Assembly (NCBI RefSeq): GCF_058153355.1
Contig: NZ_CM177019.1
DNA length: 64,000 nucleotides
Direction: 5' to 3' (one strand)
The position numbers and the translations under genes were made by a program. Numbering within the stretch: the stretch's first letter is position 1; every line of letters begins with the position of its first letter. The notes beneath the pieces were generated by a model. That model saw nothing but the letters and a program-made list of their open reading frames with translations. It was not told the origin of the DNA and did not search any database. Positions 1-46,622 of this stretch are shown here, piece by piece.

Positions 1-358
1 CTTCAGAGTCATTAATCTGGGCGTAATGGTCAGCCAGGACGAATATATTGATGCTGCCATTGAAACTGGCGCTGACGCGATTGTCGTCTCCTCTATCTAT
101 GGGCATGGCGATATCGATTGTCTGGGCATGCGCGAACGCTGCATCGAGCGTGGGCTGGGTAACATCATGCTCTATGTGGGCGGTAACCTGGTGGTCGGAA
201 AACATGACTTCGCTGACGTGGAAACCAAGTTCAAAGAGATGGGATTTGATCGCGTCTTTTCCCCAAGTCATGACTTAGAAGATGTTTGTCAGCTGATGGC
301 CCACGATATCACCCAACGTCATGACGTTGATACTCGCATTCTTGAAGAGGCAATCTGA
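1..358 (+). CDS. Glutamate mutase small (sigma, B12-binding) subunit, 5'-truncated by window edge
   Basis: Frame continues open to position 2 (FRVINLGV upstream of the first Met). Translation resembles clostridial GlmS/MutS B12-binding subunit (AIETGAD..VSS.YG.G.IDC, VGGN.VVGK). Sits first in a glmS-glmL-glmE-mal gene order. Confidence 0.8.
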
Positions 359-1746: not shown

Positions 1747-1764
1747 CAATTAAGGCTGCAATCA

Positions 1765-4451: not shown

Positions 4452-4454
4452 CAA

Positions 4455-5825: not shown

Positions 5826-6139
5826 AACAGTCAATTGTCTCACTGGCGCAAGTCATTCGTTCGAAAAATGCCGGACCTTACGAACTGGTTTTAGATATTT
5901 TATTTAAAACGAAAGAAAACTATGAGCGAGTAAAATCATCAGGGCAATTAACCCCAGAACTGATTGCGCGCTTATATCATGTTGAACCTGACTTTATTCA
6001 TCGTATTGTCTGGTTTGATCCTTCTAACGCAGTAAAAATTGTCATGCCACGAGATATTATCTCCGGGAATGTAGGTGACAATGATGTCTATGGCGCACAG
6101 CAACATGCACCTTTATTAAATATGAGTTTCGATTTGTAA
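5822..6139 (+). CDS. Small DUF4387-like protein (usual partner of DUF1446 proteins)
   Basis: 105-aa ORF overlapping the upstream stop by 4 nt, indicating translational coupling. Confidence 0.55.
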   Translation: MKQSIVSLAQVIRSKNAGPYELVLDILFKTKENYERVKSSGQLTPELIARLYHVEPDFIHRIVWFDPSNAVKIVMPRDIISGNVGDNDVYGAQQHAPLLNMSFDL

Positions 6140-6299
6140 AAATCCGAACACTTTTAGCCAACTGACATCCCGTCACTTATTGCAGCTCAACACTTCAGCT
6201 ATTTGTAAGGTTGTTATAGCAGGTAGATGCCTGAATCTCTATTCAGGCATCCACTTCTCCTGATTCTGATTTATCGCCGTGCACCTGATGGAGGAAAAA

Positions 6300-7580
6300 A
6301 TGAAGAAAATAAGTTTAACCACGATGATTCTTTTGGCGCTGGTACTTGGAATGATTATCGGCGTAGTGCTCAATAACACTGCTTCACCGGAAACAGCAAA
6401 ACTCTATGCGCAAGAAATATCGATATTCACGACGATTTTCTTACGACTGATAAAAATGATTATCGCTCCGTTAGTGGTCTCTACCCTGGTGGTAGGTATT
6501 GCTAAAATGGGCGATGCCAAAGCCCTTGGTCGTATTTTTTCTAAAACACTCTTTTTATTTATTTGCGCCTCATTGCTGTCAATTGCCTTAGGCTTGATAA
6601 CGGTAAATTTCTTCATGCCAGGCACAGGAATTAATTTTGTTGCACACGGTGCCGAAACCACCGGAGTGGTCGCGTCAGAACCCTTTACACTAAAAGTATT
6701 TATTTCGCATGCTTTCCCCACCAGCATTGTCGATGCCATGGCGCACAATGAAATTTTGCAAATCGTGGTGTTCTCAATTTTCCTCGGCTGTAGCCTGACG
6801 GCGATTGGTGAGAAAGGCAGCGCCATCGTTCACGCCTTAGATTCGCTGGCACATGCCATGTTAAAGCTCACTGGCTACGTCATGCTCTTCGCTCCCCTGA
6901 CCGTATTCGCCGCTATTTCAGCATTGATTGCTGAACGAGGACTGGCAGTTATGGTGAGCGCCGGGATCTTTATGGGTGAATTTTATTTCACCATGTTATT
7001 ACTTTGGGTGCTGCTTATCGGTCTGGCCATCGTTTATGTCGGCCCCTGCATCAGACGCCTGACCCGCGCCCTTTCAGAACCCGCCCTGCTGGCATTTACC
7101 ACATCCAGTTCTGAAGCTGCTTTTCCGGGAACGCTTGAAAAACTGGAGCAATTTGGCGTTTCCCCCAAAATTGCCAGCTTTGTCTTACCCATTGGCTACT
7201 CATTTAATCTCGTTGGATCAATGGCCTACTGCTCCTTCGCCACAGTTTTCATCGCCCAGGCCTGCAATATCCATTTATCCATCGGTGAGCAAATCACCAT
7301 GCTGTTGATCCTGATGTTGACCTCGAAAGGAATGGCTGGCGTACCACGCGCCTCAATGGTGGTTATCGCCGCCACGCTCAACCAGTTCAATATTCCGGAA
7401 GCGGGGCTGATCTTGCTGATGGGCGTTGATCCGTTCCTTGATATGGGGCGTTCCGCGACAAACGTCATGAGCAACGCAATGGGCGCTGCGATGGTGAGTC
7501 GGTGGGAAGGCGAACATTTCGGCGAGGGTTGTCGGGGTAAAGCATTAAAACCCAATGAATCGAACGTTGCTCTGCCCTGA
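6300..7580 (+). CDS. Dicarboxylate/amino acid:cation symporter (DAACS family), likely glutamate/aspartate uptake
   Basis: Multi-pass membrane protein with GltP/GltT-like sequence. Start chosen at the ATG (6300) preceded by a GGAGGA ribosome-binding site. Confidence 0.8.
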   Translation: MKKISLTTMILLALVLGMIIGVVLNNTASPETAKLYAQEISIFTTIFLRLIKMIIAPLVVSTLVVGIAKMGDAKALGRIFSKTLFLFICASLLSIALGLITVNFFMPGTGINFVAHGAETTGVVASEPFTLKVFISHAFPTSIVDAMAHNEILQIVVFSIFLGCSLTAIGEKGSAIVHALDSLAHAMLKLTGYVMLFAPLTVFAAISALIAERGLAVMVSAGIFMGEFYFTMLLLWVLLIGLAIVYVGPCIRRLTRALSEPALLAFTTSSSEAAFPGTLEKLEQFGVSPKIASFVLPIGYSFNLVGSMAYCSFATVFIAQACNIHLSIGEQITMLLILMLTSKGMAGVPRASMVVIAATLNQFNIPEAGLILLMGVDPFLDMGRSATNVMSNAMGAAMVSRWEGEHFGEGCRGKALKPNESNVALP

Positions 7581-7687
7581 GGGAGATCTTAAGCAATCAG
7601 AAGCCAATGACTACGCATTTTTATAAGCCGGATCATGAAGTTAGACGGCAATTAAGTAACACTAACGTTTAAGGTGAAAAGTGAAAT

Positions 7688-9340
7688 ATGTCCAAACCAT
7701 TTATCTGGCAAGAACCGTTTCTACAAAATAAAGACGGTACAGAATATACATTAATTAGCGATCAACATATTACAGTAACGGAATTAGACGGCGAAGAAGT
7801 AATAAAAATCGCTCCTGAAGCATTAACGCTGCTTGCCCGGCAGGCATTTTATGAAGCCTCTTTTTTCTTACGTTCCGCTCATTTGCAACAGGTCGCCAGC
7901 ATTCTTAACGATCCGCAGGCCAGCAGTAATGATAAATACGTTGCGTTGCAGTTATTACGTAATGCTGAAGTCTCAGCAAAAGGGGTATTACCCAACTGTC
8001 AGGATACCGGCACCGCAACTATTGTTGCCAGTAAAGGGCAACAGATATGGACCGGAGGCAACGACGCCGAAGCCTTAAGCAAAGGCATTTACACCACTTT
8101 TCAGGAAAATAATTTGCGCTTTTCACAAAATGCGCCGCTGGATATGTATACCGAAGTCAATACGTACACCAATCTACCGGCGCAGATTGATATCAGCGCC
8201 GTCGCTGGTGATGAGTACCATTTTCTCTGTATTAATAAAGGGGGCGGCTCCGCCAATAAAGCCGCACTTTATCAGGAAACCAAATCCTTATTGCAACCAG
8301 AAAAACTGACCGCATTTTTAATCGAAAAAATGAAATCGCTGGGCACCGCTGCCTGCCCGCCTTACCACATCGCCTTTGTCGTCGGAGGGCTTTCAGCCGA
8401 TCAAACCTTAAAAGTTGCCAAGCTGGCCTCTACGAAATATTACGACAATTTGCCCACCAGCGGAAACGAGCAGGGACAAGCATTCCGTGATATTGAGCTG
8501 GAAAAAGCGTTGCTCGAAGCCAGTCAGCAATTTGGTATTGGTGCGCAATTTGGGGGTAAATATTTCGCTCATGATATTCGCGTCATTCGTCTGCCGCGTC
8601 ACGGTGGCTCCTGCCCGATAGCTATGGCGCTCTCCTGTTCTGCCGATCGCAATATCAAAGCAAAAATTAACAAGCATGGTATCTGGCTGGAAAAACTCGA
8701 ACACAATCCGGGGCAATATATTCCAGCCTCACTGCGGGAAGAAAATCACGCGCAACATGTACAGCTGGATCTAAACCGTCCGTTGCGTGACGTGATGCAG
8801 GATCTCGCCAGATTACCGGTAGGCACCCGCGTGTCGTTAAGTGGTCCCATCGTAGTGGCGCGCGATATCGCCCACGCCAAAATAAAAGCGCGGCTGGATA
8901 GCGGCGAATCGATGCCGGATTATCTGAAGCATCATATTGTCTATTACGCTGGCCCGGCGAAAACACCGGAGAACATGGCCTGCGGTTCACTGGGTCCAAC
9001 CACGGGCGGTCGAATGGACGGTTATGTCGAAACCTTCCAGGCGGCTGGCGGCAGTCTGGTAATGTTATCGAAAGGTAACCGCAGCCAGCAGGTCACCGAT
9101 GCCTGTCACAAACATGGCGGCTTCAATCTGGGAAGTATTGGCGGTGCAGCTGCGTTACTGGCGCAAGAATATGTCAAAAGTCTGCGTTGCCTGGAATACC
9201 CGGAGCTGGGTATGGAAGCGGTGTGGATGATGGAAGTGGAAAATCTGCCCGCATTCATCCTGGTCGATGATAAAGGCAATAATTTCTTTAGTCAGTTTGA
9301 GCAGCAACACCGCTGCGCCAGTTGCCCTGCGGGACATTAA
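7688..9340 (+). CDS. fumD: Class I fumarate hydratase paralog, probable mesaconase (FumD-type)
   Basis: 550-aa ORF closely resembling FumA/FumB (CQDTGTA, GGGSANK, CPPYH, SCSADRN). Genomic context is the methylaspartate pathway. Confidence 0.85.
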
Positions 9341-9349
9341 GGAAAATGA

Positions 9350-9952
9350 ATGGAAGCGCGAATTTCAACTGAACGGCATGTGCAGCGCCAGCAGAAATTG
9401 AAGGAACAGGTCGATACGCGCGTCGCGGCGGCGATAGAGAAAAAAGGGATCTTGATTGTTTTCACCGGCAACGGCAAAGGGAAATCCACTGCCGCGTTTG
9501 GTACTGTGACGCGCGCGGTGGGTCATGGCAAAACGGTGGGGGTTGCGCAGTACATCAAGGGGCAATGGGACAACGGCGAATACAACCTTCTCCAGCCGCT
9601 GGGGGTTGAGTTTCATATTATGGGAACCGGTTTTACCTGGGAGACTCAGAACCGGCAAGCGGATATCGACGCGGCGAAAGAGGTCTGGTCGGAAAGCAAA
9701 CGGATGCTGGCTGACAAGCGTTACGACTTAGTGGTGCTTGATGAGCTGACCTATATGCTGGCTTACCATTATCTGGACACCGAAGAAGTGATCACTTCTC
9801 TGCAAAACCGCCCGGCACAACAAAGTGTCATTGTCACCGGACGCAGTTGCCACAGTCAGATATTAAAAATGGCGGATACGGTCAGCGAAATCCGCCCCGT
9901 CAAACATGCTTTTGATAACGGCATTCAGGCGCAGCCGGGTATCGACTGGTAA
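9350..9952 (+). CDS. Cob(I)alamin adenosyltransferase (BtuR/CobO family)
   Basis: 200-aa ORF with P-loop-like GNGKGKSTAA, characteristic of CobA/BtuR-type ATP:corrinoid adenosyltransferases. Confidence 0.8.
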   Translation: MEARISTERHVQRQQKLKEQVDTRVAAAIEKKGILIVFTGNGKGKSTAAFGTVTRAVGHGKTVGVAQYIKGQWDNGEYNLLQPLGVEFHIMGTGFTWETQNRQADIDAAKEVWSESKRMLADKRYDLVVLDELTYMLAYHYLDTEEVITSLQNRPAQQSVIVTGRSCHSQILKMADTVSEIRPVKHAFDNGIQAQPGIDW

Positions 9953-9955
9953 TAA

Positions 9956-9990
9956 CTGCGCCTGGCATCCCGCCAGGCGCAGGTTTTACA
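9956..9990. terminator. Bidirectional intrinsic terminator between the adenosyltransferase gene and the convergent LysR gene
   Basis: Perfect 10-bp inverted repeat ctgcgcctgg/ccaggcgcag with a 7-nt loop, followed by a T-run. Confidence 0.6.
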
Positions 9991-10891
9991 TCTCCTGCGG
10001 TACGACCGATTTCGCCAGCAACCATTCACGAAATTGCTGCAAGTGCGGCGAGTCAGACTTCTCTTCCTGCCACGTCATAATAAAACGATTACCGGTACGA
10101 ATAGGCACATCACAGGGAATCACCATATCGCCACTATCCAAATCATGTTGAATAGCGAACCGTGGTAACAGCGCCACGCCGAGATTAGAGCGCACGGCGG
10201 CAATCAGCATTGAAAGCAAATCGAAACGTGGTCCGTTATTGACCAGCGGACTGCTAACGCCAGATAAAGCAAACCACTCTTCCCAGCCAGTAATACGGGT
10301 GCTTTGATGCAGAAGTGGTAACTCAGTAAGCAGTTCTGCCACTGAAAGTTTTTGATCGGACATTGCAAGCAAACTGCCGCTGCATACCGGCAAAATCTCC
10401 TCTTCAAAGAGATATTCTACTTCCGCCCAGGGCGCGCAAAAATTTTCGCGCATAATGACAGCATCGTACTCCCGATTAAGAAAATCGCCGTTATTAGCTA
10501 AAGAATGAATATTAACAATAATATCGGGATGTAACTTTGTGAATTCATGTAAATTTGGGATTAACCAGTGGGTACTAAACGTAGGATTAACGGCAAGTTC
10601 AATAACCTGAACCGTAGGCTGCCAGGTCATAATCGTATTGGTATCGCGTTCCAGCTTATTTAATGTTTCTTTTACTATCCCCAGGTAATACTTCCCTGCA
10701 TCATTAAGAAAAATGCGTTTTTTAGAGTGTGAAAATAGCGGAGTATGTAAAAATTCCTCCAGCGCACTTACTTGTCTGAATACAGCACTTTGGGTTAACG
10801 CTAACTCCTCTGCCGCTCTGGTATAGCTTTCATGACGTGCGACGACCTCAAAAGTCACCAGCAGCTCCGTTTTAGGTATTTTTCCTCGCAT
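9986..10891 (-). CDS. LysR-family transcriptional regulator
   Basis: N-terminal helix-turn-helix typical of LysR regulators (TFEVVARHESYTRAAEELALTQSAVFRQV). Start could instead be the upstream ATG at 10921. Confidence 0.85.
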   Translation of the reverse strand: MRGKIPKTELLVTFEVVARHESYTRAAEELALTQSAVFRQVSALEEFLHTPLFSHSKKRIFLNDAGKYYLGIVKETLNKLERDTNTIMTWQPTVQVIELAVNPTFSTHWLIPNLHEFTKLHPDIIVNIHSLANNGDFLNREYDAVIMRENFCAPWAEVEYLFEEEILPVCSGSLLAMSDQKLSVAELLTELPLLHQSTRITGWEEWFALSGVSSPLVNNGPRFDLLSMLIAAVRSNLGVALLPRFAIQHDLDSGDMVIPCDVPIRTGNRFIMTWQEEKSDSPHLQQFREWLLAKSVVPQEM

Positions 10892-11480
10892 AATGCCGTC
10901 CGTGAAAAAATAACAATTCAAAAATTATTTTATAAAAAACAGTAGCACTAATGAATATCATAATTCAAATAAACAAACCAGTCAGCTATATGTCTAACCA
11001 GGAAAATAAAGTGACAATAATCCTAAAACAGGAATTTCACCTCAGTTATCCGCATGCAATACTTTAAAGCTATTATTGCAAGAATATTATTCATATACAT
11101 GAATATACTCTAAATAAGTCAAGTTGCAGGAAGGGAACAAATAATGAATTTCCAGAAGCTTACATAAGTAAGTGACCTGGGTGAGCGAACATCGATGCAG
11201 CACATGCAACTTGAATTATGACAAGTATACAATGATAAATTTATATACCCTATGTTATATATTATCTATGTCCGGTTAGATTGAATGAGTCATAGCCTTA
11301 AAAGACTTCACAAAAGATAATTCCTCTTTAACAATAAGCCAGATTTACCACTTGTAAAACTTGCTATCGCCACATACACTACGCGCGTTTTCTTTCCCTT
11401 TTGCTGGCTGCTGACCGGAAAGACAAAATTACCCTCGCAATACAGGGGGTTGATTAACGTCTATATTTCAGGACAGCGTT
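10892..11480. promoter_or_regulatory. AT-rich divergent intergenic region between the LysR gene and the RtcB-like gene
   Basis: About 590 bp of strongly AT-rich non-coding DNA between divergently oriented genes. Confidence 0.5.
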
Positions 11481-12878
11481 ATGCATCATCTTTCAAGGCT
11501 TGATAAAGCCTTTCTGCGCAAAGGGATCCAACTTTCCCGCGCCAACAATATTGTTTCATTATGTCGTCCATCAGGAGCCAGTGCCCGCGTACTGCTGCCG
11601 GACGAACTGCCGCTGGAAGAAAAAGCAGTAACACAACTGCTTGATTTTGCAGAAGTGAAGCTACCAGACCACCCAGGTTATGTGCGCCAGACGTGCGCGA
11701 CGCCAGATTTTCATCCCGGCAATGGCGTCCCCGTTGGCGCGGTGGTGGCCTCAACGCCGGATTTAGTCATTCCCGCCGCCATCGGCACCGATATTTCTTG
11801 TGGCATGCGGCTGCTGACGACCGGATTAACACTTGAGCAAGCCGAAGCGCATAAAGACGTCATCGCTCAGCGGTTAACGCAAGTGCTACTGCAAAATGAG
11901 CGCGATGTTCCGTTATCCGCACAGGCGTTCACCGCGCTTTTTGATGGCGGACCGGCAGATTGCGTGTCGACCTTGCCATCAGCAGGTCTCTGGACACGCA
12001 CGAATATCCCCCGAATGGTACAAGAGATTGACCGCTGCATTGGGCTTAACGAGCATAACAGTCATTCGCGTTATGCCCCACCCGCCCTGCTGGCAACGGA
12101 CCGCGCATTACTCCGCGATCCTTGTCTTGGTACGCCGGGTTCAGGTAATCATTTTATTGAACTTCAGGTCGTTGATAGCGTGGTTGATCGCCATGTAGCC
12201 TGGCAACAAGGGCTGAAAACAGGCGATATTGTGGTGATGATCCACAGTGGATCGCGAGATGTTGGCTTTTACGTCGGAAGACGCTGGATGGATCGCGCCC
12301 GTGCTGAATGGCCCACCGGACATAAACATCCACAAAGCGGGTTATATGGTCTGGCAGGCGGACTGGCGGAGGAATATCTACAAGCGATAGGAATGGCGGC
12401 GCGTTACGCGTGGTTAAATCGCGTGACAATTGCCGAAATGGTGCGCGTATGTCTTGCCAATCTCTTTCATCAGGACAATTCGCATCTGGTGGTGGATGTG
12501 CCACATAACATCATCCTTCGCGAGCATGAAATGAATATTCATCGCAAAGGCGCAACACCGGCACGAGTGGGCAATCTGGCGTTAATCCCCGGTTCAATGG
12601 GCGATTATTCGTGGCTTGCGGTAGGTTGCGGCAACCCGGAGTGGCTGTGGTCTTGCAGTCACGGAGCAGGACGCAGCCAGCGTCGGCAGGCCATGCGCTC
12701 ACGCGCGACTGAAGAGTCAACGTTGCCGTGGCAATGCGTCACATTGCGCGAAGAACGGCGTATTGAAGAAGCGCCAGCTGCTTATAAAGATATTGGTCCG
12801 GTTATCGAAGCCCAACAAGAGGCCGGATTAATTCATCCAGCGGTTAGATTCCGACCGTGGTTAACGTTTAAAGCATAA
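11481..12878 (+). CDS. RtcB-family RNA ligase-like protein (orphan paralog)
   Basis: 465-aa ORF with RtcB hallmark motifs (DISCGMR, GSGNHFIE, HSGSRDVG, CSHGAGR). No rtcA or rtcR gene adjacent. Confidence 0.75.
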   Translation: MHHLSRLDKAFLRKGIQLSRANNIVSLCRPSGASARVLLPDELPLEEKAVTQLLDFAEVKLPDHPGYVRQTCATPDFHPGNGVPVGAVVASTPDLVIPAAIGTDISCGMRLLTTGLTLEQAEAHKDVIAQRLTQVLLQNERDVPLSAQAFTALFDGGPADCVSTLPSAGLWTRTNIPRMVQEIDRCIGLNEHNSHSRYAPPALLATDRALLRDPCLGTPGSGNHFIELQVVDSVVDRHVAWQQGLKTGDIVVMIHSGSRDVGFYVGRRWMDRARAEWPTGHKHPQSGLYGLAGGLAEEYLQAIGMAARYAWLNRVTIAEMVRVCLANLFHQDNSHLVVDVPHNIILREHEMNIHRKGATPARVGNLALIPGSMGDYSWLAVGCGNPEWLWSCSHGAGRSQRRQAMRSRATEESTLPWQCVTLREERRIEEAPAAYKDIGPVIEAQQEAGLIHPAVRFRPWLTFKA

Positions 12879-15089: not shown

Positions 15090-15275
15090 GTCACCCGTAG
15101 GCCTGATAAGACGCGCAAGCGTCGCATCAGGCATCGCGTGTCGGATGCGGCGCGAGCGCCTTATCCGACCTACATTGATGGTCCCCGTAGGCCTGATAAG
15201 ACGCGTCAGCGTCGCATCAGGCTTCAATTGCCGGAGAAAGCGATAATGCCTCATCCGGTCTACAGTGCAGGTGAA
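15090..15275. repeat. REP/BIME palindromic elements in the sucB-sucC intergenic region
   Basis: Repeated gcctgataagacgcg...cgtcgcatcaggc and ggatgcggcg palindromic units. Confidence 0.8.
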
Positions 15276-19476: not shown

Positions 19477-19762
19477 ATTTCCTGCATTTCTTTTGTAGGC
19501 CGGATAAGGCGTTCACGCCGCATCCGGCGCTGTTTGCCTGATGCGACGCTTGCGCGTCTTATCAGGCCTACGATTCCTGCATTTCTTTTGTAGGCCGGAT
19601 AACGCATTCACGCCGCATCCGGCACTGGTTGCCTGATGCGACGCTTGCGCGTCTTATCAGGCCTACGATTTCTGCATTTCTTTTGTAGGCCGGATAAGGC
19701 GTTCACGCCGCATCCGGCACTGGTTGCCTGATGCGACGCTTGTGCGTCTTATCAGGCCTGGG
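19477..19762. repeat. Three tandem copies of a ~95-bp REP/BIME unit in the sdhB-sucA intergenic region
   Basis: Unit tctgcatttcttttgtaggccggataaggcgttcacgccgcatccggc...gcctgatgcgacgcttgcgcgtcttatcaggcctac repeated head-to-tail three times with a few substitutions. Confidence 0.85.
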
Positions 19763-39153: not shown

Positions 39154-39977
39154 TTACGAAAGCACGCTCCCCGCAAGGACTGACGCCAGGTAGTTTCTGT
39201 CCATGGCTGCCCTTTCCATTCACACGTGAAATCAATAAGTTCATCAGGGACATCGCAAACAATGTGAAGACGGATTTCTTCTCTGCCGTGACTCTTTTCA
39301 CTAATTGCGTAACTGTCATGCTCTGGATTATTTAATTCTTTCAGTGAGAATTTTTCCTCAAAGGCTTTATTTAGCCGCCCCTGGTTTCCTTTTACAGCGA
39401 ATAAATAATCACCTCCCTGTTTTTGTATCTTCTCTGCAATATCTTTCTGGCAACCCATCGCATCAGTTGTGATGATTTTTCCTTTAATATCCAGCATGTT
39501 AAGAAGTTCAGGGATAGCTGTAATTTCATTTGATTTCTCATCCGTCCTGATCTGTCCGATGACCAGACTGTGCATTGTTGAGAACGCACTAATGACATGA
39601 ATCGCTCCCCTGCAGCGACTCTTGTCATAAGAATGCCGGAGCTTTTTTCCATCAATTGCAATGACGTCTTTATCATCTGAAGAATGGCAGTCACGCATCC
39701 AGTTAATAAAGCACTCGTGAAATTTTGCAGGACTGATACAGGATACAACTCTGGCAATGGTATCGTGAACAGGAATACCATTTTCAAAATCACCCTATTG
39801 CTTCAAAAAATCGAGATGTGTTTCCCCAAAATCCTCTATATCTTCTCAACCTTCTGCACCCGAAATAACGGCGCAAATAGTCAACAGTAGAATATCCGAT
39901 AATTTATGTTCCACTTTCCAGGCTTGTCTGTAATCGGGGATAATAGAAATATGTTCCATCAATTTTTTAAGTACCAT
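39154..39977 (-). pseudogene. H-repeat-associated (ISAs1-family) transposase pseudogene
   Basis: N-terminus [43 protein letters not shown] hits an in-frame TGA. Downstream frames carry [20 protein letters not shown]...[18 protein letters not shown] and the terminal [16 protein letters not shown], requiring a frameshift and an internal deletion after ...EWKG. Confidence 0.85.
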
Positions 39978-40370
39978 TTTGTTCTCCTTAATTATGTAAG
40001 GAGTATTTGATCATGTATAAGCAATAAAAAACAGCTTCAGGTAATGAGGAATATCTCAATTTTTAAACATAAAATGCGAATTGTTTAGTACAAAAAAGCA
40101 GCGTTACGTGATCTTTTCCTGCCATGGGTCTTTACCACAGCAGCTGGGGTTGTTTGGGACCGACTTCCGACAGCAGATCCCGGTGAGCCTGCCACCATCT
40201 CTTCACAAGCTTATGCTTATTACATGCAAAACGTCCCGTTTTGCATCTTTGTGCCTACGGCACACGATGATCTTTCCCTGAGGAGTCATACTTTGTTAGG
40301 ATAAAAAACCTTTAAATAGCTTTCCTACCTTCCAATAAAAACCACAGAATCAGCAATGTTTAAATTTCAA

Positions 40371-41192
40371 TCAGTATTGAGTTTCATTTGTGATCTCTAC
40401 ATTCACTCCTGATGGCTTCTCGCTAAATAAATATCTCATACTCTCATTCTCCATAATCACGGATATATTTAACCCTCCATGAATCCATTGATATGTAATA
40501 TTTTTATCATCAATCTTATAACTAAAATTCCCAATTGGTAACTTTTCCTTCAGATAATTATTCTCCTCATAACTAAGTGCTAGTAATTTATCATAGGCAC
40601 CTTTTAAATCAAAACCCTCAAAATAGCAATGTTCTTTTGATGAACCATCAAATTCTTTTCTGGGATTAGCATCATGACACCAAGTCGACCATTTTTCTTT
40701 TTTTTCCTCAGAAGTATGTTTTTTTTCATTGAAAAACAGCACATAATATTTCTCTGGGATTATTATCTGATCATTAATTTTTAAGATATCTCTATATGGC
40801 CCAGGACATTTATGAACAGAATCCATAATGGATATTTCTTCAGGAAAAAGTTTGCCTTCATGTTTAAATAATTTCCTGTACATACCAACTGTTGTTTGTG
40901 ATAAGTAATATGACAAGGGCTTTTTTTTAACTTCAACATAGTCAGTCGAGCATACGAGACTATTTTCCAATGAATAATCATTTATCGTTAGCTTTCGCCC
41001 ATCCATATTTATCACTACCTTACTGTATGTTTCATCAAGGGCACTTATTATAAGCGAATCATGTTTACCAAAAACATCGATATCTGAAACATTATGATAA
41101 ATCCATACGGTATTTTTAGTATTATCATTAGAATATGCGATACCATGAATAAAAAAAATCATTAGAAAGCCCATAAAAAATTTACCGCGCAT
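40371..41192 (-). CDS. Putative periplasmic immunity protein for the adjacent T6SS cell-wall-lytic effector
   Basis: 273-aa ORF with Sec-type signal peptide (MRGKFFMGFLMIFFIHGIAYS), Lys/Asn-rich, AT-rich codon usage, 19 bp downstream of the effector gene. No recognisable homology, so function is inferred from position. Confidence 0.6.
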   Translation of the reverse strand: MRGKFFMGFLMIFFIHGIAYSNDNTKNTVWIYHNVSDIDVFGKHDSLIISALDETYSKVVINMDGRKLTINDYSLENSLVCSTDYVEVKKKPLSYYLSQTTVGMYRKLFKHEGKLFPEEISIMDSVHKCPGPYRDILKINDQIIIPEKYYVLFFNEKKHTSEEKKEKWSTWCHDANPRKEFDGSSKEHCYFEGFDLKGAYDKLLALSYEENNYLKEKLPIGNFSYKIDDKNITYQWIHGGLNISVIMENESMRYLFSEKPSGVNVEITNETQY

Positions 41193-41211
41193 ACAAATTC
41201 CTTAATGTAAA

Positions 41212-43977
41212 TCAATGTGATGAATCATAAACATTATTCAAAAATAGATTTTGTTCTTTTCGGCGTCGTATAACAAGGCCAGCAACTCCGCCATTTGTAA
41301 TATCAAGAAATTCATTGGAGGCACCTATATAATCCTTTTGATTAAGTTTAGAATTCAAATTCGGTGCCTTACTCATGCTCCCCATATTAAACAATAAACT
41401 TATTAACGCATCAAATTCGTACTGATATAAATCCACACTCACTGTTCTTTTAAGCTCACTAACAAAACCAGATAAACGCTCTTCAAATAACTCATCAGCT
41501 TTAGCAATTGTTATTCCATGCTGAAATTCTTCTGGTAAAACTATATCATTGCAACGTTGTGTAGCAATTAAATGTCCATAACCTATAGTACAGTAACCTT
41601 CTGAATCATTATATGCTGTTAGTTGTAAATATTCCCATTCTTTTATAAAACCCTTACCTTTATTTGATACATTCAAATCTGCAATGGCGATCCTTTCAGC
41701 AGTTTGTTCTTCGTTAAAACTATTGATGTACCCCTCCATCAATATATCAATTGGATCATGTAAATCATCCCGTCTATAAAATGGAGGTATTTGTGTATTA
41801 TTCGGCGGAGGCGCTCCATTGTTTCCTGGATAGTATTCAAAATGCAACATATAAACCACTTCTTCCCCAGGGATTATAACTGGAGGCCTCCCTGTATCAG
41901 GTTTAATCATCAACCCTGTTTTGGCAATTATTGCCCCTTGCATAATATGATCATTAATCTTTACTAAAATACTTGATGGATCAACTTCACCATACCGCAC
42001 ATAGAAATGCCGACCATCTCTAGTCGAGTGCTCAATCGTAACTTGCCAAGTACCGTAATAGTATCGAGAAATAGCTCTTACTATTCCGTTGCAAACCGAA
42101 ACAATATCAGACTTCGGTTCCGTATATAGATCACGCGCTCCATGTTTTCTATTACCATTATTACGATTTCGTCCAAATATAGCTTGAGAGGCATTTCGAT
42201 CTGTCAAGGCAGCAGCCCAAAAATAATTTTTCCACTTTCCATTTTTGTCATTATTAGGTTTTACTTTTAAAGGAAAAATAATTTGATTTGATTTTTTCTG
42301 AGATAATGAATCTAAAAACACAACCGGATGAAAATGCCACACAGCATCATCACTATTAAACGGAGATACCCCGCTCATCCACTCCAGATCCAGCTGCCAC
42401 TTCTCACAGTATGCCACTTCCTCTGTATCCAGATCTTTATAAAATCCTTCCCACCGCCCTGTCGAGCGCCCTCCGTACCATTCGCTGTGGTGTTTAACTA
42501 TCAGATGATTCACCACATTTCTCACCAGTGGTTCACGCACGATCAGCGCCTGTCTGATCTCTTCCTCCGTCACTTTTCCATCACCGTCCTGATCCATACC
42601 CGCCATCAGCTCACGATAAAAGGGCGGTACCTGCTCATACAGCCACTCATCTCCCTGTTCTGCGGCACGGCTTATTGAGTCAAACGCTTCCGGCACCCAT
42701 CCTTCGTACGGGCTGTACGTCATGTCACCGCTGCTGTTCTCCTCCAGCGGTTGAAAACCCAGCTTCAGTAAATCATACTGTCCGGCCTCTTCAACATCCT
42801 TTTGTGGCAGCCAGCCGGTTCCGGTGATATTAAACCACCACTGCTGCGATTCATCCGTGACTGGTGTCGTGGCTTCCCGCGGAAGAACGCGCTGAGCACC
42901 CAGCGTGGCTGCGGTTGCGGTAAATACCTCCTGTCCCGGAACGGCCTGCCGGGTGTATAAAATTATCCCTTTTGGTGCCAGAACAGTCCGTTTTTCTCCC
43001 TTAACGCCTGCCGGGTTGGATAAGAACTTTGGCATATTCGGGTCTGTACTCAGAACCTCCAGATGGACGAACCACTCGCGCTCAATCTCACCGCTTCCCT
43101 CGCCAGGATAATCCTCGCATCCCATAAATCCGACCGGTGTTCCGGCACTGACTTTCCACTCTTCCGTTTCGTCGACCGTCTGTACCGAGTCAAAAATGCC
43201 TTTTGCCTTCGCCTTCTGCATCCACTCAGGCATCAGCATCTGTATTTCGCCATCTGACTCCATCAGATCCGGATCCAGGGTCACCCAGTACTGCTCATTC
43301 CCCGGTTTATTGCCTTCCAGCAGGCGAACCAGTCCGAATGTCGTCAGGACCGGCTGGCCGTTATTGGTCACGTAAAAACGTCCGGTCCGGGATGACACAA
43401 ACCGATCTCCCGCATTAAGTGTCCTGTTTCCGCTGATTTTCGGGGGTATCCAGTACGTGGCATGATCTCCGCTTTCCTGCCCCTCGGGAAGGCCGTTCTT
43501 TCCCGGGATGTATCGGTGCAGCAATATGCCACCATGCCCGGTTTTAACTTTATAGCAGGGGGAGCCGGGATAATCGTTCACCGGGGCCAGATGCATATAG
43601 AGACAGTAAAATTCCAGCCAGCTTTCTTTTTTTTGCGGGTCTGGCTGGCACTGCGATTTCACCAGAACAAATGTGCTGCTGTAACGGAGTTGCTGCCCTT
43701 TGTAGGGGCCTTTCAGGTAATCATTATTTATCCGGTACGCCGCAATGGTGCCATCGGCCATAAACTGAAGAGGAACCGGTTCTCCGGTAGCGGCGGTATC
43801 CGGTTTCAGGGCTGATAACGGATTAGACACGTCACTGATATGTATCCCGCCGTGCCACAGCCCGTTTCCACCCAGCAGCCAGGTTCCGTGCGCTTCTTTG
43901 TCAATAAGCCGCATTATCTCATCCAGTGAGCGAAACTCTTTGCCTTCTTTATCCCTGATGGGATGGCTGATTTTCAT
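41212..43977 (-). CDS. VgrG-linked T6SS effector with C-terminal T4-lysozyme-like (GH24) muramidase domain and internal M23-peptidase-like domain
   Basis: 921 aa. Residues ~770-915 align motif-for-motif with T4 lysozyme (KEWEYLQLTAYNDSEGYCTIGYGHL vs ...[24 protein letters not shown]; Glu/Asp/Thr triad positions present). Residues ~605-716 carry HGARD...MLHFEYY, resembling M23 HxxxD...HxH. EF-hand-like loop DQDGDGKVTEEE at residues 462-473. Start lies 9 nt after the vgrG stop with an AGGA ribosome-binding site. Confidence 0.75.
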   Translation of the reverse strand: MKISHPIRDKEGKEFRSLDEIMRLIDKEAHGTWLLGGNGLWHGGIHISDVSNPLSALKPDTAATGEPVPLQFMADGTIAAYRINNDYLKGPYKGQQLRYSSTFVLVKSQCQPDPQKKESWLEFYCLYMHLAPVNDYPGSPCYKVKTGHGGILLHRYIPGKNGLPEGQESGDHATYWIPPKISGNRTLNAGDRFVSSRTGRFYVTNNGQPVLTTFGLVRLLEGNKPGNEQYWVTLDPDLMESDGEIQMLMPEWMQKAKAKGIFDSVQTVDETEEWKVSAGTPVGFMGCEDYPGEGSGEIEREWFVHLEVLSTDPNMPKFLSNPAGVKGEKRTVLAPKGIILYTRQAVPGQEVFTATAATLGAQRVLPREATTPVTDESQQWWFNITGTGWLPQKDVEEAGQYDLLKLGFQPLEENSSGDMTYSPYEGWVPEAFDSISRAAEQGDEWLYEQVPPFYRELMAGMDQDGDGKVTEEEIRQALIVREPLVRNVVNHLIVKHHSEWYGGRSTGRWEGFYKDLDTEEVAYCEKWQLDLEWMSGVSPFNSDDAVWHFHPVVFLDSLSQKKSNQIIFPLKVKPNNDKNGKWKNYFWAAALTDRNASQAIFGRNRNNGNRKHGARDLYTEPKSDIVSVCNGIVRAISRYYYGTWQVTIEHSTRDGRHFYVRYGEVDPSSILVKINDHIMQGAIIAKTGLMIKPDTGRPPVIIPGEEVVYMLHFEYYPGNNGAPPPNNTQIPPFYRRDDLHDPIDILMEGYINSFNEEQTAERIAIADLNVSNKGKGFIKEWEYLQLTAYNDSEGYCTIGYGHLIATQRCNDIVLPEEFQHGITIAKADELFEERLSGFVSELKRTVSVDLYQYEFDALISLLFNMGSMSKAPNLNSKLNQKDYIGASNEFLDITNGGVAGLVIRRRKEQNLFLNNVYDSSH

Positions 43978-43986
43978 GTTCAGTCC

Positions 43987-46185
43987 TTATCGTGAGAATC
44001 TTCCCGGCCGTTGTGGCGGTACCTTATCCTGCTGGGGAGGATCAAAGGCTTCCTGTACACTTTTCCGTGGTGGCTCCGCCCCTTCAGTTCCAGGTCCGCC
44101 ATTGTCATAATCTGCCAGCGCTTTCAAAACCGCCGGTCGTAGCGTCGGCACCGGCGTTCCCGGACTACCGCCGCTATTGAGATTGATTTTCGGCCCGACG
44201 ATGTCCACGCCCCCTGAATGGATGACCACAAACGAACCACCCACCTTTAGGGTGATTTTACCGCCACTCTCCAGTACGATTTCATTCCGGACCTTCATTC
44301 CCAGCGCACCGGTAATCTTCCTCGCCAGGTCGCCCTTCACCTCCAGACTGTGCTTTCCCTCCACCAGGCTGATATGGTTCCCCGTCGTCTTATGCTCCTG
44401 CTTCCCTTCCACCGTCACTTTACGGTCGTTTCTGACATACAGGCCGTCATCGTGACTCACGCTCACCGTCCGGTCATTCGTCACCTTCAGCGTCTGGTCA
44501 TTACGTACCGTTATGCGCCGGTCGTTCGCCACCGTGATACTCTGGTCGTGACCCCCTTCTTTTCTGGTGCCGACCTCAACCGTCTGCCCCTTCACCACCC
44601 TTATCTTCTGGTCGTTACCGATGGTCTCCGTATGGTCATGCTTCACGTCCGTCGTCCGGTCGTTAAGCACCTCCGTGTCCATGTTCTTCTGCGCGTGGAT
44701 ATACACCTGCTCACTGTCCGTCGCATCCTCGAAACGCAGTTCATTAAAGCCGCTTCCTTTATAGGTCTTCGAGCGGATGGTCATCTGCGTCCGCGTGCCC
44801 GGTAAATCCCCCGGTGAACGGTTATCTTCATGGTAGGTCCGCCCCGTCACAATGGGCTGGTCCGGGTCGCCGTTCAGAAAGTCCACTATCACTTCCTGAC
44901 CCACACGCGGTATCGCCAGATTGCCGAACCCCGGTCCCGCCCATGCCTGCGACACCCGTATCCAGCACGAACTCTCCTCCGTCATCCCGTGATAACGGTC
45001 CCAGTGAAACTTCACCCGTACCCGGCCATGCTCGTCGCAGAATATCTCCTCACCCTTCGGCCCGGTCACGATGGCACTCTGCGGGCCGTCCACCTTCGGC
45101 TTCGGCAGCGGCGCGTGACGCCACGTCCTGTCTGCCGGTATCACCTCAAACTGATTGCTCAGTGTCGTCCCTTCACCGTGACTCCCGTGCAGCGCCTGCG
45201 GCTGTTCTCCCCGCAGTGTGCTTCCCACAACCTGCCATTCCCGGTTCAGCGTCTCTGAGGGATGGCCCGTCAGCCGGAACCGCGTTCCCGGCCACAGCCG
45301 CGCCGTGTTACACACCCCGCTCGCCGTCTCCGCCCCGTTCCGCCACCCTTCCGTCTGGTAACGCGCAAAATCCTGGCCATGCTGCTCATCCTTGAAACGC
45401 CCCGGATAATCAAATATCTCGTACTGCGTTCCCTGCCCGTTCAGGCTCTCCCCGTCATGGCTGTAGTACCCCGGCCACCCCGGCGTTTTGAACGTATAAT
45501 CCTGCGTCTCCACCGACGCCACGCTTATCTGCGCACGGTAACGAAACTCACTGATGTACTCCGTCGTTCCCCCGGTCGTGGTATTCGGGTTAAACGCCAG
45601 CGCCCCCATTCCCGTCAGCCCCGCCACGTCATCACACACCGCCAGCTTCTGCTCCGGCCCTTCCTGACCGCAGCGCTCATAAAAGAAGATACCTTCCTCC
45701 GCCCACAGCCGGGTCAGGAATGCCAGGTCGCTCTCCCCGTACTGCACGCAGAACTCCCGCGCCGGGTGCGCCTCATAGAACAGCGGCATCCACGCCGTCA
45801 CCCCGTTCTCTCTCAGAAGCTGTGCTGATATCGTCTGAATGTCCTGCTGCTGGAAGATACGGAAGTTCTGCCGTAACCCTGCCCGCCACAGCGGCGGGCT
45901 GATGCTCAGGGAATAACGCATCTGCCAGTCGTTGTTCTCACCGAGCTGCACCTCCGTCACGATACCGCTGACGTAACGCTGCGGGATATCACCCTGCCAG
46001 ACCGTCAGCACCGCGCTCTTCTCCAGAAAATCCTCCGCCATCAGGTCGGACAGCCCGCTGGCGATATCCACATCCAGGATGAACGACGTGCAGTGGTGCT
46101 GGTACAGACGGAAGCTCACCACCGCCGTCGCCATCTCCACGATACCGTCCACCGACAGCGTGAAACGTAATCCTTCTGAGGACAT
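43987..46185 (-). CDS. vgrG: Type VI secretion system spike protein VgrG
   Basis: N-terminus MSSEGLRFTLSVDGI and gp27/gp5-like VgrG sequence (FRLYQ..., ISPPLWRAGLRQNFRIFQ, EGIFFYE). The ORF track offers an upstream ATG at 46218; 46185 is preferred by comparison with typical VgrG N-termini. Confidence 0.9.
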   Translation of the reverse strand: MSSEGLRFTLSVDGIVEMATAVVSFRLYQHHCTSFILDVDIASGLSDLMAEDFLEKSAVLTVWQGDIPQRYVSGIVTEVQLGENNDWQMRYSLSISPPLWRAGLRQNFRIFQQQDIQTISAQLLRENGVTAWMPLFYEAHPAREFCVQYGESDLAFLTRLWAEEGIFFYERCGQEGPEQKLAVCDDVAGLTGMGALAFNPNTTTGGTTEYISEFRYRAQISVASVETQDYTFKTPGWPGYYSHDGESLNGQGTQYEIFDYPGRFKDEQHGQDFARYQTEGWRNGAETASGVCNTARLWPGTRFRLTGHPSETLNREWQVVGSTLRGEQPQALHGSHGEGTTLSNQFEVIPADRTWRHAPLPKPKVDGPQSAIVTGPKGEEIFCDEHGRVRVKFHWDRYHGMTEESSCWIRVSQAWAGPGFGNLAIPRVGQEVIVDFLNGDPDQPIVTGRTYHEDNRSPGDLPGTRTQMTIRSKTYKGSGFNELRFEDATDSEQVYIHAQKNMDTEVLNDRTTDVKHDHTETIGNDQKIRVVKGQTVEVGTRKEGGHDQSITVANDRRITVRNDQTLKVTNDRTVSVSHDDGLYVRNDRKVTVEGKQEHKTTGNHISLVEGKHSLEVKGDLARKITGALGMKVRNEIVLESGGKITLKVGGSFVVIHSGGVDIVGPKINLNSGGSPGTPVPTLRPAVLKALADYDNGGPGTEGAEPPRKSVQEAFDPPQQDKVPPQRPGRFSR

Positions 46186-46415: not shown

Positions 46416-46622
46416 TCAGTAAAAATCACCGGTTGCCTTTTCGGCCTGATCCATCCACACCGGTTTATCGCTGGTTTTCGACCAGACGCGATGCAGGTAG
46501 CTGTAAAAGCGGGCGCGGTCTTTCCAGAAAAGCATGAAAGGCAGCGCCAGGACGCCCGCTGCAACCGCATAAGTACGGCGTAAAAAGATAAGCCATGCAG
46601 GATATTCTCTGTAGAGTTCCAT
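46416..46622 (-). CDS. ybfA: DUF2517-family small protein
   Basis: 68-aa [46 protein letters not shown]. Confidence 0.9.

Follow-up and report, generated by a model that had tools for sequence, protein, structure and literature searches.

In the window, the whole 64,000-nucleotide stretch of contig NZ_CM177019.1 (assembly GCF_058153355.1) that was analysed, we identified three consecutive minus-strand open reading frames: vgrG, an effector gene and a gene for a putative immunity protein (Table 1). An earlier note on this DNA had placed a compact vgrG-effector-immunity cassette at the rhsC position of K-12, and the flanks bear this out, matching K-12 MG1655, in which the order at the corresponding position is ybfA-rhsC-ybfB…ybfD-ybgA-phr: on one side lies ybfA (46416-46622) with kdpFAB, and on the other lie ISAs1/H-repeat remnants, ybgA and phr. 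Gene order and synteny, like the domain identities, folds, motif conservation, composition and homology breakpoints given below, were established directly. The spacing is 9 bp between vgrG and the effector gene and 19 bp between the effector gene and the immunity gene, with a ribosome-binding site (AAGGA) ahead of both genes downstream of vgrG. Because these gaps are so short, there is no space within the cassette for an adaptor or PAAR gene; in agreement with the earlier observation that none intervenes, a scan for ORFs of at least 60 aa found no adaptor or PAAR ORF between or adjoining the three genes, and the cassette contains no DUF4123, DUF1795, DUF2169 or PAAR gene. Chance reading frames could be excluded for the cassette, given that VgrG and the 921-aa protein match profiles. 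No T6SS core genes were found within the 64-kb window and no phage genes near the cassette, and a simple promoter scan upstream of vgrG yielded nothing above chance.

Table 1. Features of the cassette and its border, in window coordinates
Feature	Position	Strand	Remarks
vgrG (tssI)	43990-46185, stop 43987-43989	minus	732 aa from ATG at 46185
VgrG C-terminal tail PPQRPGRFSR	43990..44019	minus	proposed docking peptide for WHIX cavity
Effector gene	41215-43977, stop 41212-41214	minus	921 aa; WHIX – M23 – GH24
WHIX secretion/loading domain, effector aa 1-556	42310..43977	minus	homology to catalogued WHIX
WHxxxH motif, W41-H42-G-G-I-H46 (WHGGIH)	43840..43857	minus	invariant in alignment A1
EF-hand inside WHIX, aa 455-478, loop DQDGDGKVTEEE at 462-473	42544..42615	minus	Pfam EF-hand_1 9.8e-4
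M23/LytM-fold domain, aa ~569-754	41716..42273	minus	AlphaFold2 model, Foldseek, alignments
GH24 phage-type lysozyme (muramidase), aa ~770-921	41215..41670	minus	PF00959 7.5e-25
Immunity gene	40374-41192, stop 40371-40373	minus	273 aa; predicted periplasmic
ISAs1 (H-repeat) 5' fragment	39703..40096	minus	bounds cassette

Comparison of the effector with Pfam and NCBIfam gave no match to Rhs/YD families, as expected from its previous description as a non-Rhs protein. Its residues 1-561 are 98.75% identical to an E. coli ORF (locus L002) whose last 100 residues are identical to the WP_000703217.1 entry in the supplementary files of Fridman et al. (PLoS Biol 2025, PMC12135965), the study in which the WHIX motif WHxxxH was defined; WHIX is bipartite, and WHxxxH belongs to its first region. 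According to that study, WHIX alone is sufficient for T6SS secretion, it co-precipitates with VgrG4 in E. coli, where other Aeromonas proteins are absent, and more than 98% of the genomes with a WHIX gene carry a T6SS (PMC12135965). In the window effector, H42 and H46 are spaced as HxxxH, and H42 and H129 are 87 residues apart vs. 90 for H19 and H109 of TseP, a comparison of residue numbers only; the zinc and catalytic residues of the TseP N-domain are H19, H23, H109, H339, H359 and E539 (PMC11893102). By analogy with the amidase activity reported for TseP-N, the WHIX domain of the window effector may be an amidase, a third activity that is uncertain because WHIX by itself is non-toxic in the E. 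coli periplasm (Fridman et al., PMC12135965). Profile comparison of WHIX with the M23 family gave a weak match (probability 12.5%).

The VgrG protein scored 586 bits against TIGR03361 (cut-off 186) and contains the Pfam domains Phage_GPD, Phage_base_V and Gp5_trimer_C; an identical 732-aa vgrG gene call is present at another locus (L006). Among the VgrGs encoded upstream of effector homologues, a tail of the …GRFSR type is shared even where the bodies are only 24% identical, and the pattern …G(R/L)(F/I)SR recurs on otherwise unrelated VgrGs: the tail reads …PAQRRGRFSR in Enterobacter hormaechei (body only 24% identical), …QIQRIFSR in Citrobacter and …RKGLISR in a Pantoea-type symbiont. At one E. 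hormaechei locus (L014), a nonsense codon strips the tail from VgrG and widens the vgrG–effector gap, so that either the effector may go without loading or the tail may be dispensable. In published work, Awe1 uses its WHIX domain to bind A. jandaei VgrG4 at the C-terminal 14 residues, which delivery requires as well; the tail K684…VSFSGR694 is needed both for the binding of WHIX and for delivery (PMC12135965). VgrG2 was likewise recovered in pull-downs with TseP-N (PMC11893102). Docking of the effector on the VgrG tail would thus by analogy be expected in this strain, and adaptor-free docking on VgrG, which the earlier note had suggested, is the mechanism that experiments have demonstrated in the WHIX class (PMC12135965, PMC11893102). 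One question that arises is whether …GRFSR serves generally as the address label by which WHIX is loaded.

The HMM searches that the earlier note had proposed support its view that the 921-aa protein contains peptidoglycan-degrading domains, with Pfam matches to Phage_lysozyme (7.5e-25) and Peptidase_M23 (4.3e-5). PDB endolysins match the GH24 domain down to 2.5e-16 (8app), and its triad E782/D791/T797 is intact, with E782 and D791 invariant in alignment A1 and a spacing equal to that of the T4 lysozyme triad E11/D20/T26. WP_032211049.1, which exemplifies the ‘Lysozyme-like’ WHIX effectors (PMC12135965), agrees with the lysozyme-type C-terminus at roughly three-quarters of the last 100 residues, counted by eye.

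The Peptidase_M23 match ends before the HxH motif. An AlphaFold2 model of the domain (pLDDT 90.1) had 44 Foldseek matches in the PDB at E ≤ 0.001, nearly all of them LytM/M23 domains, and its structural neighbours include lysostaphin, LytM, ShyA, EnvC and the LytM domain of DipM. The top match in the Foldseek list was a cyanophage ejectosome protein. Substitutions in the domain were mapped by a 33-sequence alignment together with a profile-to-PDB alignment. The zinc ligands are kept, namely H612 and D616 of HxxxD together with H712, the His that stands second in HxH; among the 33 aligned sequences D616 never varies, and H612 and H712 are each retained in at least 90%. The two catalytic histidines of M23, one in ‘YxHL’ and the other at the start of HxH, are both absent: RYGE aligns with YGH(V/L) in the M23 domains of StM23 and phage 2638A, with E664 at the His position, and MLHFE aligns with HLHFE, with M710 at the His position. 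The variant RYGE is invariant in the aligned sequences (33/33), which range from Enterobacterales to Campylobacterota; for MLHFE, as for the HxxxD histidine, conservation is at least 90%. Because both canonical catalytic histidines are missing, the M23 domain may be no enzyme. A glutamate is able to act as general base in metallopeptidases. Stand-alone homologues that consist of M23 only precede small signal-peptide ORFs in toxin/immunity-like arrays, which suggests that the domain could be toxic alone. Whether the conserved Glu-variant M23 domain is an active endopeptidase is a question that these findings raise.

The 273-aa protein encoded downstream begins with an N-terminus that, read by eye, is of Sec type (MRGK, then a hydrophobic stretch to …HGIA|YS). 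It matched no Pfam or NCBIfam family, and its own family has only 55 cluster representatives among 1.84 billion proteins, with four invariant cysteines (C81, C129, C172 and C189). With this signal peptide-like N-terminus and the four cysteines the protein looks periplasmic, as had been predicted. Its model has two lobes (pLDDT 88.6, pTM 0.55) and no fold match in the PDB; A9MN06 in AFDB, from the same Salmonella strain as the immunity protein SARI_02624, is a structural match with 33% identity (E 1.3e-25). The gene is kept directly 3' of the effector gene in Enterobacter and Citrobacter, and it stays intact beside truncated orphan toxins in other strains. How one 273-aa protein without a known fold would neutralise two different enzymes is a further question.

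Full-length homologues of the effector (63-71% identity) were found in Enterobacter and Citrobacter, and the E. hormaechei homologue lies inside the main T6SS cluster (hcp-clpV-vgrG-[921 aa]-[278 aa]-…-PAAR-tssM). The 9-bp spacing between vgrG and effector gene recurs in 2 of the 3 E. hormaechei loci (L015 and L016; L014 differs) and in the locus of the Pantoea-type symbiont (L025). Salmonella proteins with M23 and GH24 cargo include one of 62% identity (P0047) and one of 48% identity to the M23 query (P0137). Two other assemblies contain near-identical intact trios. Along the cassette, GC content falls from vgrG (0.597) through WHIX (0.529) and cargo (0.351) to the immunity gene (0.309), and other E. 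coli WHIX cassettes are homologous only as far as window position 42311. Orphan modules of WHIX 3' part, toxin and immunity gene in N96, L003 and L002 all start at the equivalent of window position 42843, and the same ISAs1 5' fragment abuts them; the unit of ISAs1 5' fragment, WHIX 3' arm, toxin and immunity gene occurs with an identical junction at two E. coli chromosomal sites. Of the 5,426 complete E. coli genomes, 1 contained the toxin–immunity module, there solely as an orphan. Judged by its sequence, the cassette is a rare member of the WHIX effector class described in 2025-2026. The earlier impression that the domain combination represents an undescribed effector family does not hold, since the N-terminal 561 aa are catalogued WHIX, the lysozyme-type C-terminus is close to the catalogued WP_032211049.1, and a collinear pair, SARI_02625/SARI_02624, has already been tested (PMC12992299). 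What had not been described before is the active-site variant of M23, the family of two-lobed immunity proteins with four cysteines, for which there is no solved fold, and how rare the cassette is.

With WHIX subclass I (PMC12135965) the cassette shares an N-terminal WHIX with WHxxxH, a gene directly after vgrG, a peptidoglycan-targeting C-terminal cargo, a downstream signal-peptide protein and a conserved N-terminus bearing polymorphic C-termini, and the dataset of Fridman et al. includes both near-identical E. coli WHIX domains and the ‘Lysozyme-like’ C-terminus WP_032211049.1. The window effector has M23 and then GH24 in tandem C-terminal to WHIX and one immunity gene, whereas in the ‘double-blade’ subclass II a toxin flanks WHIX on either side, and two immunity genes are needed (PMC12135965). 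The supplementary file of C-terminal sequences in that study gives only the last 100 residues per protein (PMC12135965), and an internal M23 domain would be missed if the C-terminal classes rest on those residues alone. SARI_02625/SARI_02624 in SPI-21 of Salmonella enterica subsp. arizonae (Front Microbiol 2026, PMC12992299) is collinear in EF-hand, M23 and endolysin, with domains and triad offset by ~108 residues (E890/D899/T905-906 vs. E782/D791/T797, likened by positions) and a Sec-signal immunity protein of 276 aa vs. 273 aa; it differs in genus, in size (1,032 aa vs. 921 aa) and in setting (SPI-21 vs. an auxiliary module at the rhsC position). In that study, which expressed the endolysin part alone and did not recognise WHIX, the periplasm-targeted endolysin part of SARI_02625 was toxic, rescue by SARI_02624 was partial, and a competition phenotype was observed (PMC12992299).

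The Aeromonas dhakensis effector TseP is a chimera of amidase and lysozyme (Wang et al., eLife 2025, PMC11893102) that Fridman et al. count among the WHIX-containing effectors (PMC12135965). It docks directly on the VgrG encoded upstream, contains an EF-hand, and shares with the window effector the N-to-C drop in GC and the lysozyme-type C-terminus, but lacks the M23 insert that the window effector has between WHIX and lysozyme; when the window effector was compared with PDB sequences, no TseP chain ranked among its best matches. Orphan arrays of toxin and immunity genes of the Rhs and CDI type, the K-12 rhsC locus at the same chromosomal site among them, likewise combine a conserved 5' delivery part with swappable 3' toxin and immunity modules; a stretch of the conserved part serves their displaced orphans as homology arm, and the module borders carry ISAs1 fragments. 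Unlike Rhs arrays, the window cassette has neither YD repeats nor an Rhs core, and WHIX is what is conserved in it. In Acinetobacter baumannii, Tse4 (Le et al. 2021) is also described, in the paper that cites it (PMC12135965), as cleaving peptidoglycan by two activities, apparently with just one immunity protein; the description there, of a lytic transglycosylase and endopeptidase with no WHIX reported, sets it apart.

We consider it very probable that the three genes form an auxiliary (orphan) T6SS module composed of a spike, a subclass-I WHIX cargo effector and a periplasmic immunity protein. Secretion, docking, toxicity and protection are taken here from homologues or the literature and would proceed as follows. 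The WHIX cavity (N-terminal ~556 residues) would cap the short …QRPGRFSR tail of the VgrG encoded upstream, so that no adaptor would be required, and a T6SS encoded elsewhere would fire VgrG with its bound effector into an adjacent Gram-negative cell. There the cargo would attack periplasmic peptidoglycan at two bonds, with the GH24 muramidase cutting the glycan strand and the M23/LytM-fold domain cutting peptide cross-links by means of the zinc ligands H612/D616/H712 and Glu664 in place of the catalytic His. The producer and its kin would be shielded by the disulfide-bonded 273-aa periplasmic protein. As to origin, the toxin/immunity part (GC 31-35%) was on this reading acquired horizontally and joined to the resident E. 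coli vgrG–WHIX (GC 53-60%), with the junction exactly at the WHIX/cargo boundary. A more elaborate version, in which the effector has three blades (WHIX amidase, Glu-for-His M23 endopeptidase and GH24 muramidase), the immunity protein has one lobe per cargo enzyme, and the ISAs1 fragment, WHIX 3' arm, toxin and immunity gene form a portable exchange module, seems to us unlikely.

It is possible, if on the doubtful side, that the M23-like domain is a non-catalytic LytM module, serving in binding or targeting or in hydrolase activation like EnvC and NlpD, and that all toxicity resides in GH24. The retention of all three zinc ligands, unlike in degenerate LytM factors, argues against such a role, as do the constancy of RYGE, MLHFE and the HxxxD histidine, the M23-only homologues in toxin/immunity-like arrays and the capacity of glutamate to be a metallopeptidase general base. 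Consistent with it are the replacement of both canonical catalytic histidines by E664 and M710, the weak and truncated Pfam match, the EnvC and DipM LytM domains among the structural neighbours, and the demonstration of toxicity in Salmonella for the endolysin part only (PMC12992299). We regard as decidedly improbable that the cassette is no weapon in this strain, for want of a compatible T6SS or because its genes are silent, and is kept mainly for immunity against the same toxin from neighbours. The window without a T6SS core gene, the promoter scan without a convincing match and the other strains that keep an intact immunity gene with a truncated toxin would fit this explanation, whereas the prevalence of T6SS among WHIX-gene genomes (>98%; Fridman et al., PMC12135965) speaks against it. 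The trio is moreover full length, with AAGGA sites ahead of both downstream genes and an intact vgrG tail, and is near-identical and intact in two other assemblies.

Many cargo effectors need DUF4123, DUF1795 or DUF2169 chaperones, and E. hormaechei clusters encode a PAAR protein a few genes downstream. That the window effector depends for loading on an adaptor or PAAR protein from an unlinked gene, and not on direct capture of the VgrG tail, nevertheless appears very unlikely, given a cassette without an adaptor or PAAR gene, a tail kept across unrelated VgrG bodies, and a WHIX domain that alone is enough for secretion and co-precipitates with VgrG4 (PMC12135965). Phage lysins frequently contain Phage_lysozyme and M23 domains, and the cyanophage ejectosome protein tops the M23 Foldseek list; yet we give almost no credence to a phage-derived lysis or tail-lysin gene without a T6SS link, as there are no phage genes near the cassette, the enzymes are fused to the T6SS-specific WHIX 9 bp after vgrG, and homologues lie in T6SS core clusters.

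Answers to the questions on the M23 domain, the immunity protein and the VgrG tail would leave the current picture of T6SS unchanged, and the cargo enzymes could be modestly interesting as antibacterial lysins. For E. coli, the cassette at this locus shows that the classic rhs sites also host non-Rhs WHIX cassettes, with a swapping of toxin and immunity genes like that of Rhs.

The earlier note had placed three consecutive minus-strand ORFs between ybfA and an H-repeat remnant, and we confirmed their exact coordinates (see table). The first is unambiguously a vgrG (TIGR03361, 586 bits; Pfam Phage_GPD, Phage_base_V and Gp5_trimer_C), and AAGGA ribosome-binding sites precede both the effector gene and the 273-aa gene. 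The cassette lies between ybfA with kdpFAB and a stretch of ISAs1/H-repeat remnants, ybgA and phr. These flanks match the gene order of K-12 MG1655, where the equivalent position holds rhsC-ybfB-…-ybfD, and the proposed location at the K-12 rhsC position stands, as does the proposed lack of an adaptor or PAAR gene, no such ORF being found in the ORF listing of the cassette. No T6SS core genes were found within the 64-kb window, and a promoter and terminator scan gave counts no better than shuffled sequence. A group II intron fragment sits between the 273-aa gene and the ISAs1 remnant; at the same spot, strain N96 and the homologous locus L003 have a complete intron that includes an ltrA reverse transcriptase, adjoining a duplicated copy (~160 bp) of the window's fragment.

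Features of the window, with matches and base composition
Feature	Position	Strand	Details
Methylaspartate-pathway gene block	358-10921
RtcB-family gene	11481-12878	+	465 aa
naRNA4/CssrE (Rfam RF02564)	15100-15170	-	one separate copy
naRNA4/CssrE (Rfam RF02564)	19498-19758	+	three tandem copies; 75-87 bits across all copies
Group II intron fragment	40079-40280	-	Rfam group-II-D1D4-2, 42.9 bits at 40079-40196
Third ORF (putative immunity gene)	40374-41192	-	273 aa; start 19 bp past effector stop; GC 0.309, GC3 0.26
Effector ORF	41215-43977	-	921 aa; start 9 bp past vgrG stop
WHIX part	effector aa 1-556		GC 0.529, GC3 0.58
EF-hand	effector aa 455-478		Pfam 1e-3
Cargo	effector aa 557-921		GC 0.351, GC3 0.23
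Peptidase_M23	effector aa 611-688		Pfam 4.3e-5
Phage_lysozyme	effector aa 779-908		Pfam 7.5e-25
vgrG	43990-46185	-	732 aa, ATG at 46185; GC 0.597, GC3 0.73

The remainder of the window consists of housekeeping genes (suc/sdh/gltA, kdp, speF-potE, pgm) and an island for the methylaspartate route of glutamate fermentation, which encodes GlmL, methylaspartate mutase subunit E, methylaspartate ammonia-lyase and class I fumarate hydratase, together with a DctA/GltP-type transporter, a cob(I)yrinic acid adenosyltransferase and a LysR regulator. In the RtcB-family protein, only residues ~213-464 match RtcB models, and the N-terminal part of ~210 residues does not. The naRNA4/CssrE copies lie, by their coordinates, in intergenic gaps beside long ORFs that are taken, by ORF size and order only, to be suc/sdh genes.

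HMM searches of the two proteins downstream of vgrG gave a divided result: the effector matched lysozyme, M23 and EF-hand families, in line with the peptidoglycan-degrading domains predicted earlier, and the 273-aa protein had no Pfam or NCBIfam match. No Pfam family matched over the first ~560 residues of the effector, a region that contains WHGGIH (aa 41-46), an instance of the WHxxxH signature from which the T6SS secretion domain WHIX takes its name (Fridman et al., PMC12135965). The assignment to WHIX goes beyond this motif: in E. coli MFDS1022581, vgrG is followed by an 829-aa ORF to which residues 1-561 are 98.75% identical, and over its last 100 residues this ORF is identical to WP_000703217.1 in the supplementary files of that study (PMC12135965). 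The C-terminus of the effector (…NNVYDSSH) is clearly homologous to WP_032211049.1, an example of the 'Lysozyme-like' class in Table 1 of the same paper. The idea that WHIX is a divergent M23 fold yielded a weak hhalign result for the WHIX-only vs. M23 alignments (12.5% probability, with the G…G…HxE region alone aligned). A phage-lysin origin was set aside given the lack of phage genes nearby, the fusion to WHIX, the vgrG 9 bp upstream and the homologues in T6SS clusters. Among the homologues, the 939-aa Enterobacterales protein P0030 has WHIX at 151-703, that is, after an N-terminal extension of ~150 residues; it may be a subclass II 'double-blade' effector related to that of the window.

The GH24 domain of the cargo aligns to solved endolysins (E down to 2.5e-16 in a PDB sequence search) and keeps E782, D791 and T797, spaced as are E11, D20 and T26 in T4 lysozyme. 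A phmmer search with the M23 region alone (aa 560-758) found nothing among PDB sequences, and a family profile was required to reach M23 PDB entries by sequence. The AlphaFold2 model of this region, built from 33 homologues, is confident (pLDDT 90.1), and its PDB neighbours are almost all LytM/M23 proteins, including lysostaphin, LytM, ShyA, Csd1/2 and EnvC. When the family profile was aligned to M23 structures, the zinc ligands were found to be kept (H612 and D616 in RKHGARD, and H712) and two histidines to be replaced, by E664 (RYGE) and M710 (MLHFE). Histidines at these two positions are usually regarded as catalytic, and their replacement could indicate a non-catalytic LytM module, a reading that we consider rather unlikely. 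In the 33-sequence alignment, which takes in stand-alone M23 proteins of Gilliamella, Schmidhempelia, Campylobacter and Helicobacter, RYGE is invariant (33/33), and at least 90% of the sequences share the HxxxD histidine and MLHFE; this pattern suggests a constrained variant active site in a domain that is probably active.

Searched exhaustively, 1.84 billion cluster representatives yielded only 55 relatives of the 273-aa protein, mostly of 270-290 aa. In their alignment the N-terminus is hydrophobic and four cysteines are invariant, features that fit a periplasmic protein with disulfide bonds and agree with the periplasmic location predicted earlier (signal-peptide cleavage was judged by eye). 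The structural model has a pLDDT of 88.6 and a pTM of only 0.55, which points to two lobes (about 28-156 and 172-271) of uncertain mutual orientation. It had no PDB match at E ≤ 0.001, and its AFDB matches were all uncharacterised proteins or lipoproteins, one of them from Salmonella arizonae RSK2980 and some of them single-lobe proteins matched as isolated structures. Each lobe may counter one of the two enzymes. A search for the lobes as separate one-lobe proteins, each linked to one toxin, gave half-length sequence matches that were adjacent split pseudogene pieces where the context sufficed (locus L022, 123 aa + 143 aa), and the remaining ones sat on contigs too short to judge. Against a 16-sequence database, a C-lobe profile weakly matched small ORFs after M23/M15 toxins of Campylobacterota (E 1.7e-9 to 1.7e-3) and did not match the ORF directly after one Campylobacterota M23 toxin. 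The GH24-only WHIX effector P0126 was considered as a one-lobe immunity case and rejected, because its lysozyme belongs to another type and is paired with an unrelated immunity protein.

Homologues of the 273-aa protein are encoded directly 3' of the effector homologue in E. hormaechei and Citrobacter freundii, and the gene stays intact beside truncated toxin genes in other E. coli. The Salmonella arizonae pair SARI_02625/SARI_02624, reported in 2026, has an EF-hand–M23–endolysin layout and a signal-peptide partner of ~276 aa; the endolysin part was toxic to E. coli when targeted to the periplasm, the partner gave partial rescue, and deletion of the pair produced a competition phenotype (PMC12992299). 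By published positions, the domain and catalytic-triad coordinates of SARI_02625 are offset from those of the window protein by a constant ~108 residues. From the conserved synteny and, by analogy, these experiments, we infer that the 273-aa protein acts as the immunity protein, and we hold the antibacterial toxin–immunity reading of the earlier note to be probably right on function.

GC drops stepwise along the cassette, from vgrG to the immunity gene. Other E. coli have a vgrG–WHIX cassette at the yibF (rhsA-side) locus, to which the window cassette is homologous in DNA sequence only as far as window 42311, the WHIX/cargo junction (codon 556). Of 5,426 complete E. coli genomes, one (N96) has the cargo and immunity DNA, as a 5'-truncated orphan, and none was found to have the intact trio; a draft assembly and a metagenome contig each have a near-identical intact trio. 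At the ybfA–ybgA locus, where the cassette lies in the window, N96 and several draft genomes encode a VgrG–pyocin-S DNase fusion and its immunity gene. An ISAs1 5' fragment comes next, and after it the orphan, whose start corresponds to window 42843 (effector codon ~379), with the 273-aa gene intact behind it. The yibF-locus orphan of MFDS1022581 has a different cargo, the same start nucleotide and the same adjoining ISAs1 fragment. At the ybfA–ybgA locus of N96, L003 and L007-L009, the evolved VgrG–pyocin-S/colicin DNase fusion (1,151 aa) and its Colicin_Pyocin immunity gene take the place of the 3' end of vgrG and of codons 1-378 of WHIX in the window-type cassette; in N96, an IS66 element also interrupts the vgrG.

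In a 16-kb locus of Salmonella enterica LS483428.1, one vgrG precedes a chain of at least four WHIX modules of cargo and immunity gene: a full effector and its immunity gene come first, then units whose cargo is pesticin+LprI, M23-GH24 (here the immunity gene is split), muramidase or GH19. This chain is a stacked orphan array. Downstream of the immunity gene in two E. hormaechei loci (L014:9968-10762 and L016:9929-10762), orphan ORFs run from a point inside WHIX (…EWFIHLEVLS…) to the WHIX/cargo junction; together with the CHAP-domain ORF and the small ORF after them, they look like another displaced WHIX cargo module. The E. coli orphan modules and the Salmonella chain are arranged in the style of Rhs/CDI orphan arrays, and the retained WHIX 3' segment could plausibly serve as a homology arm for cargo switching.

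The earlier note did not recognise the domain combination as a described effector family, a view that does not hold: the WHIX class and its loading mechanism were published in 2025 (PMC12135965; TseP, PMC11893102), and together with the SARI pair they make the cassette a rare E. coli example of an already described effector type. TseP of Aeromonas dhakensis, cited as a WHIX-containing effector by Fridman et al. (PMC12135965), shares with the window protein an EF-hand and a GC drop between the N and C parts (PMC11893102). Literature on E. coli vgrG islands and on Enterobacter and Klebsiella T6SS M23 effectors concerns different proteins (DUF3289-M23; LysM-SLT-M23 'Tke'). In the literature as searched, four aspects appear undescribed: this cargo on WHIX, its two enzyme-type domains in tandem on one side and accompanied by only one immunity gene; the M23 variant with Glu in place of His; the fold of the 273-aa protein; and the shared ISAs1/WHIX junction of the orphans.

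TseP binds its upstream VgrG directly (PMC11893102), and the window effector would resemble it in this respect. The WHIX domain of Awe1 co-precipitates with VgrG4, and removal of the last 14 residues of VgrG4 abolished binding, secretion and killing (PMC12135965); adaptor-free loading is thus backed by experiment for the WHIX class, and by analogy, together with the conserved VgrG tail, the direct docking proposed earlier is probably correct. The VgrGs upstream of effector homologues end in …PPQRPGRFSR in the window, …PAQRRGRFSR in E. hormaechei, …PPQIQRIFSR in Citrobacter and …ARKGLISR in a Pantoea-type symbiont; A. jandaei VgrG4 ends in …KVSFSGR (PMC12135965). The E. hormaechei VgrG is of the DUF2345 type, and its body is only 24% identical to that of the window VgrG, so the shared tail does not simply reflect common descent of the whole protein. 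The E. hormaechei effector homologue lies inside a core cluster (hcp-clpV-vgrG-effector-immunity-…-PAAR-tssM), a link between the effector family and the T6SS that does not depend on published work. Relative to L015 and L016, the E. hormaechei locus L014 has a CAG→TAG change (L014:5930-5940) that shortens VgrG by its last 18 codons, so that the …RRGRFSR tail is lost, and the 921-aa effector homologue downstream is still intact; eleven further places with similar neighbour genes were grouped with this locus, the sequence being read for L014 itself. This loss provides a natural test of whether the VgrG tail is needed.
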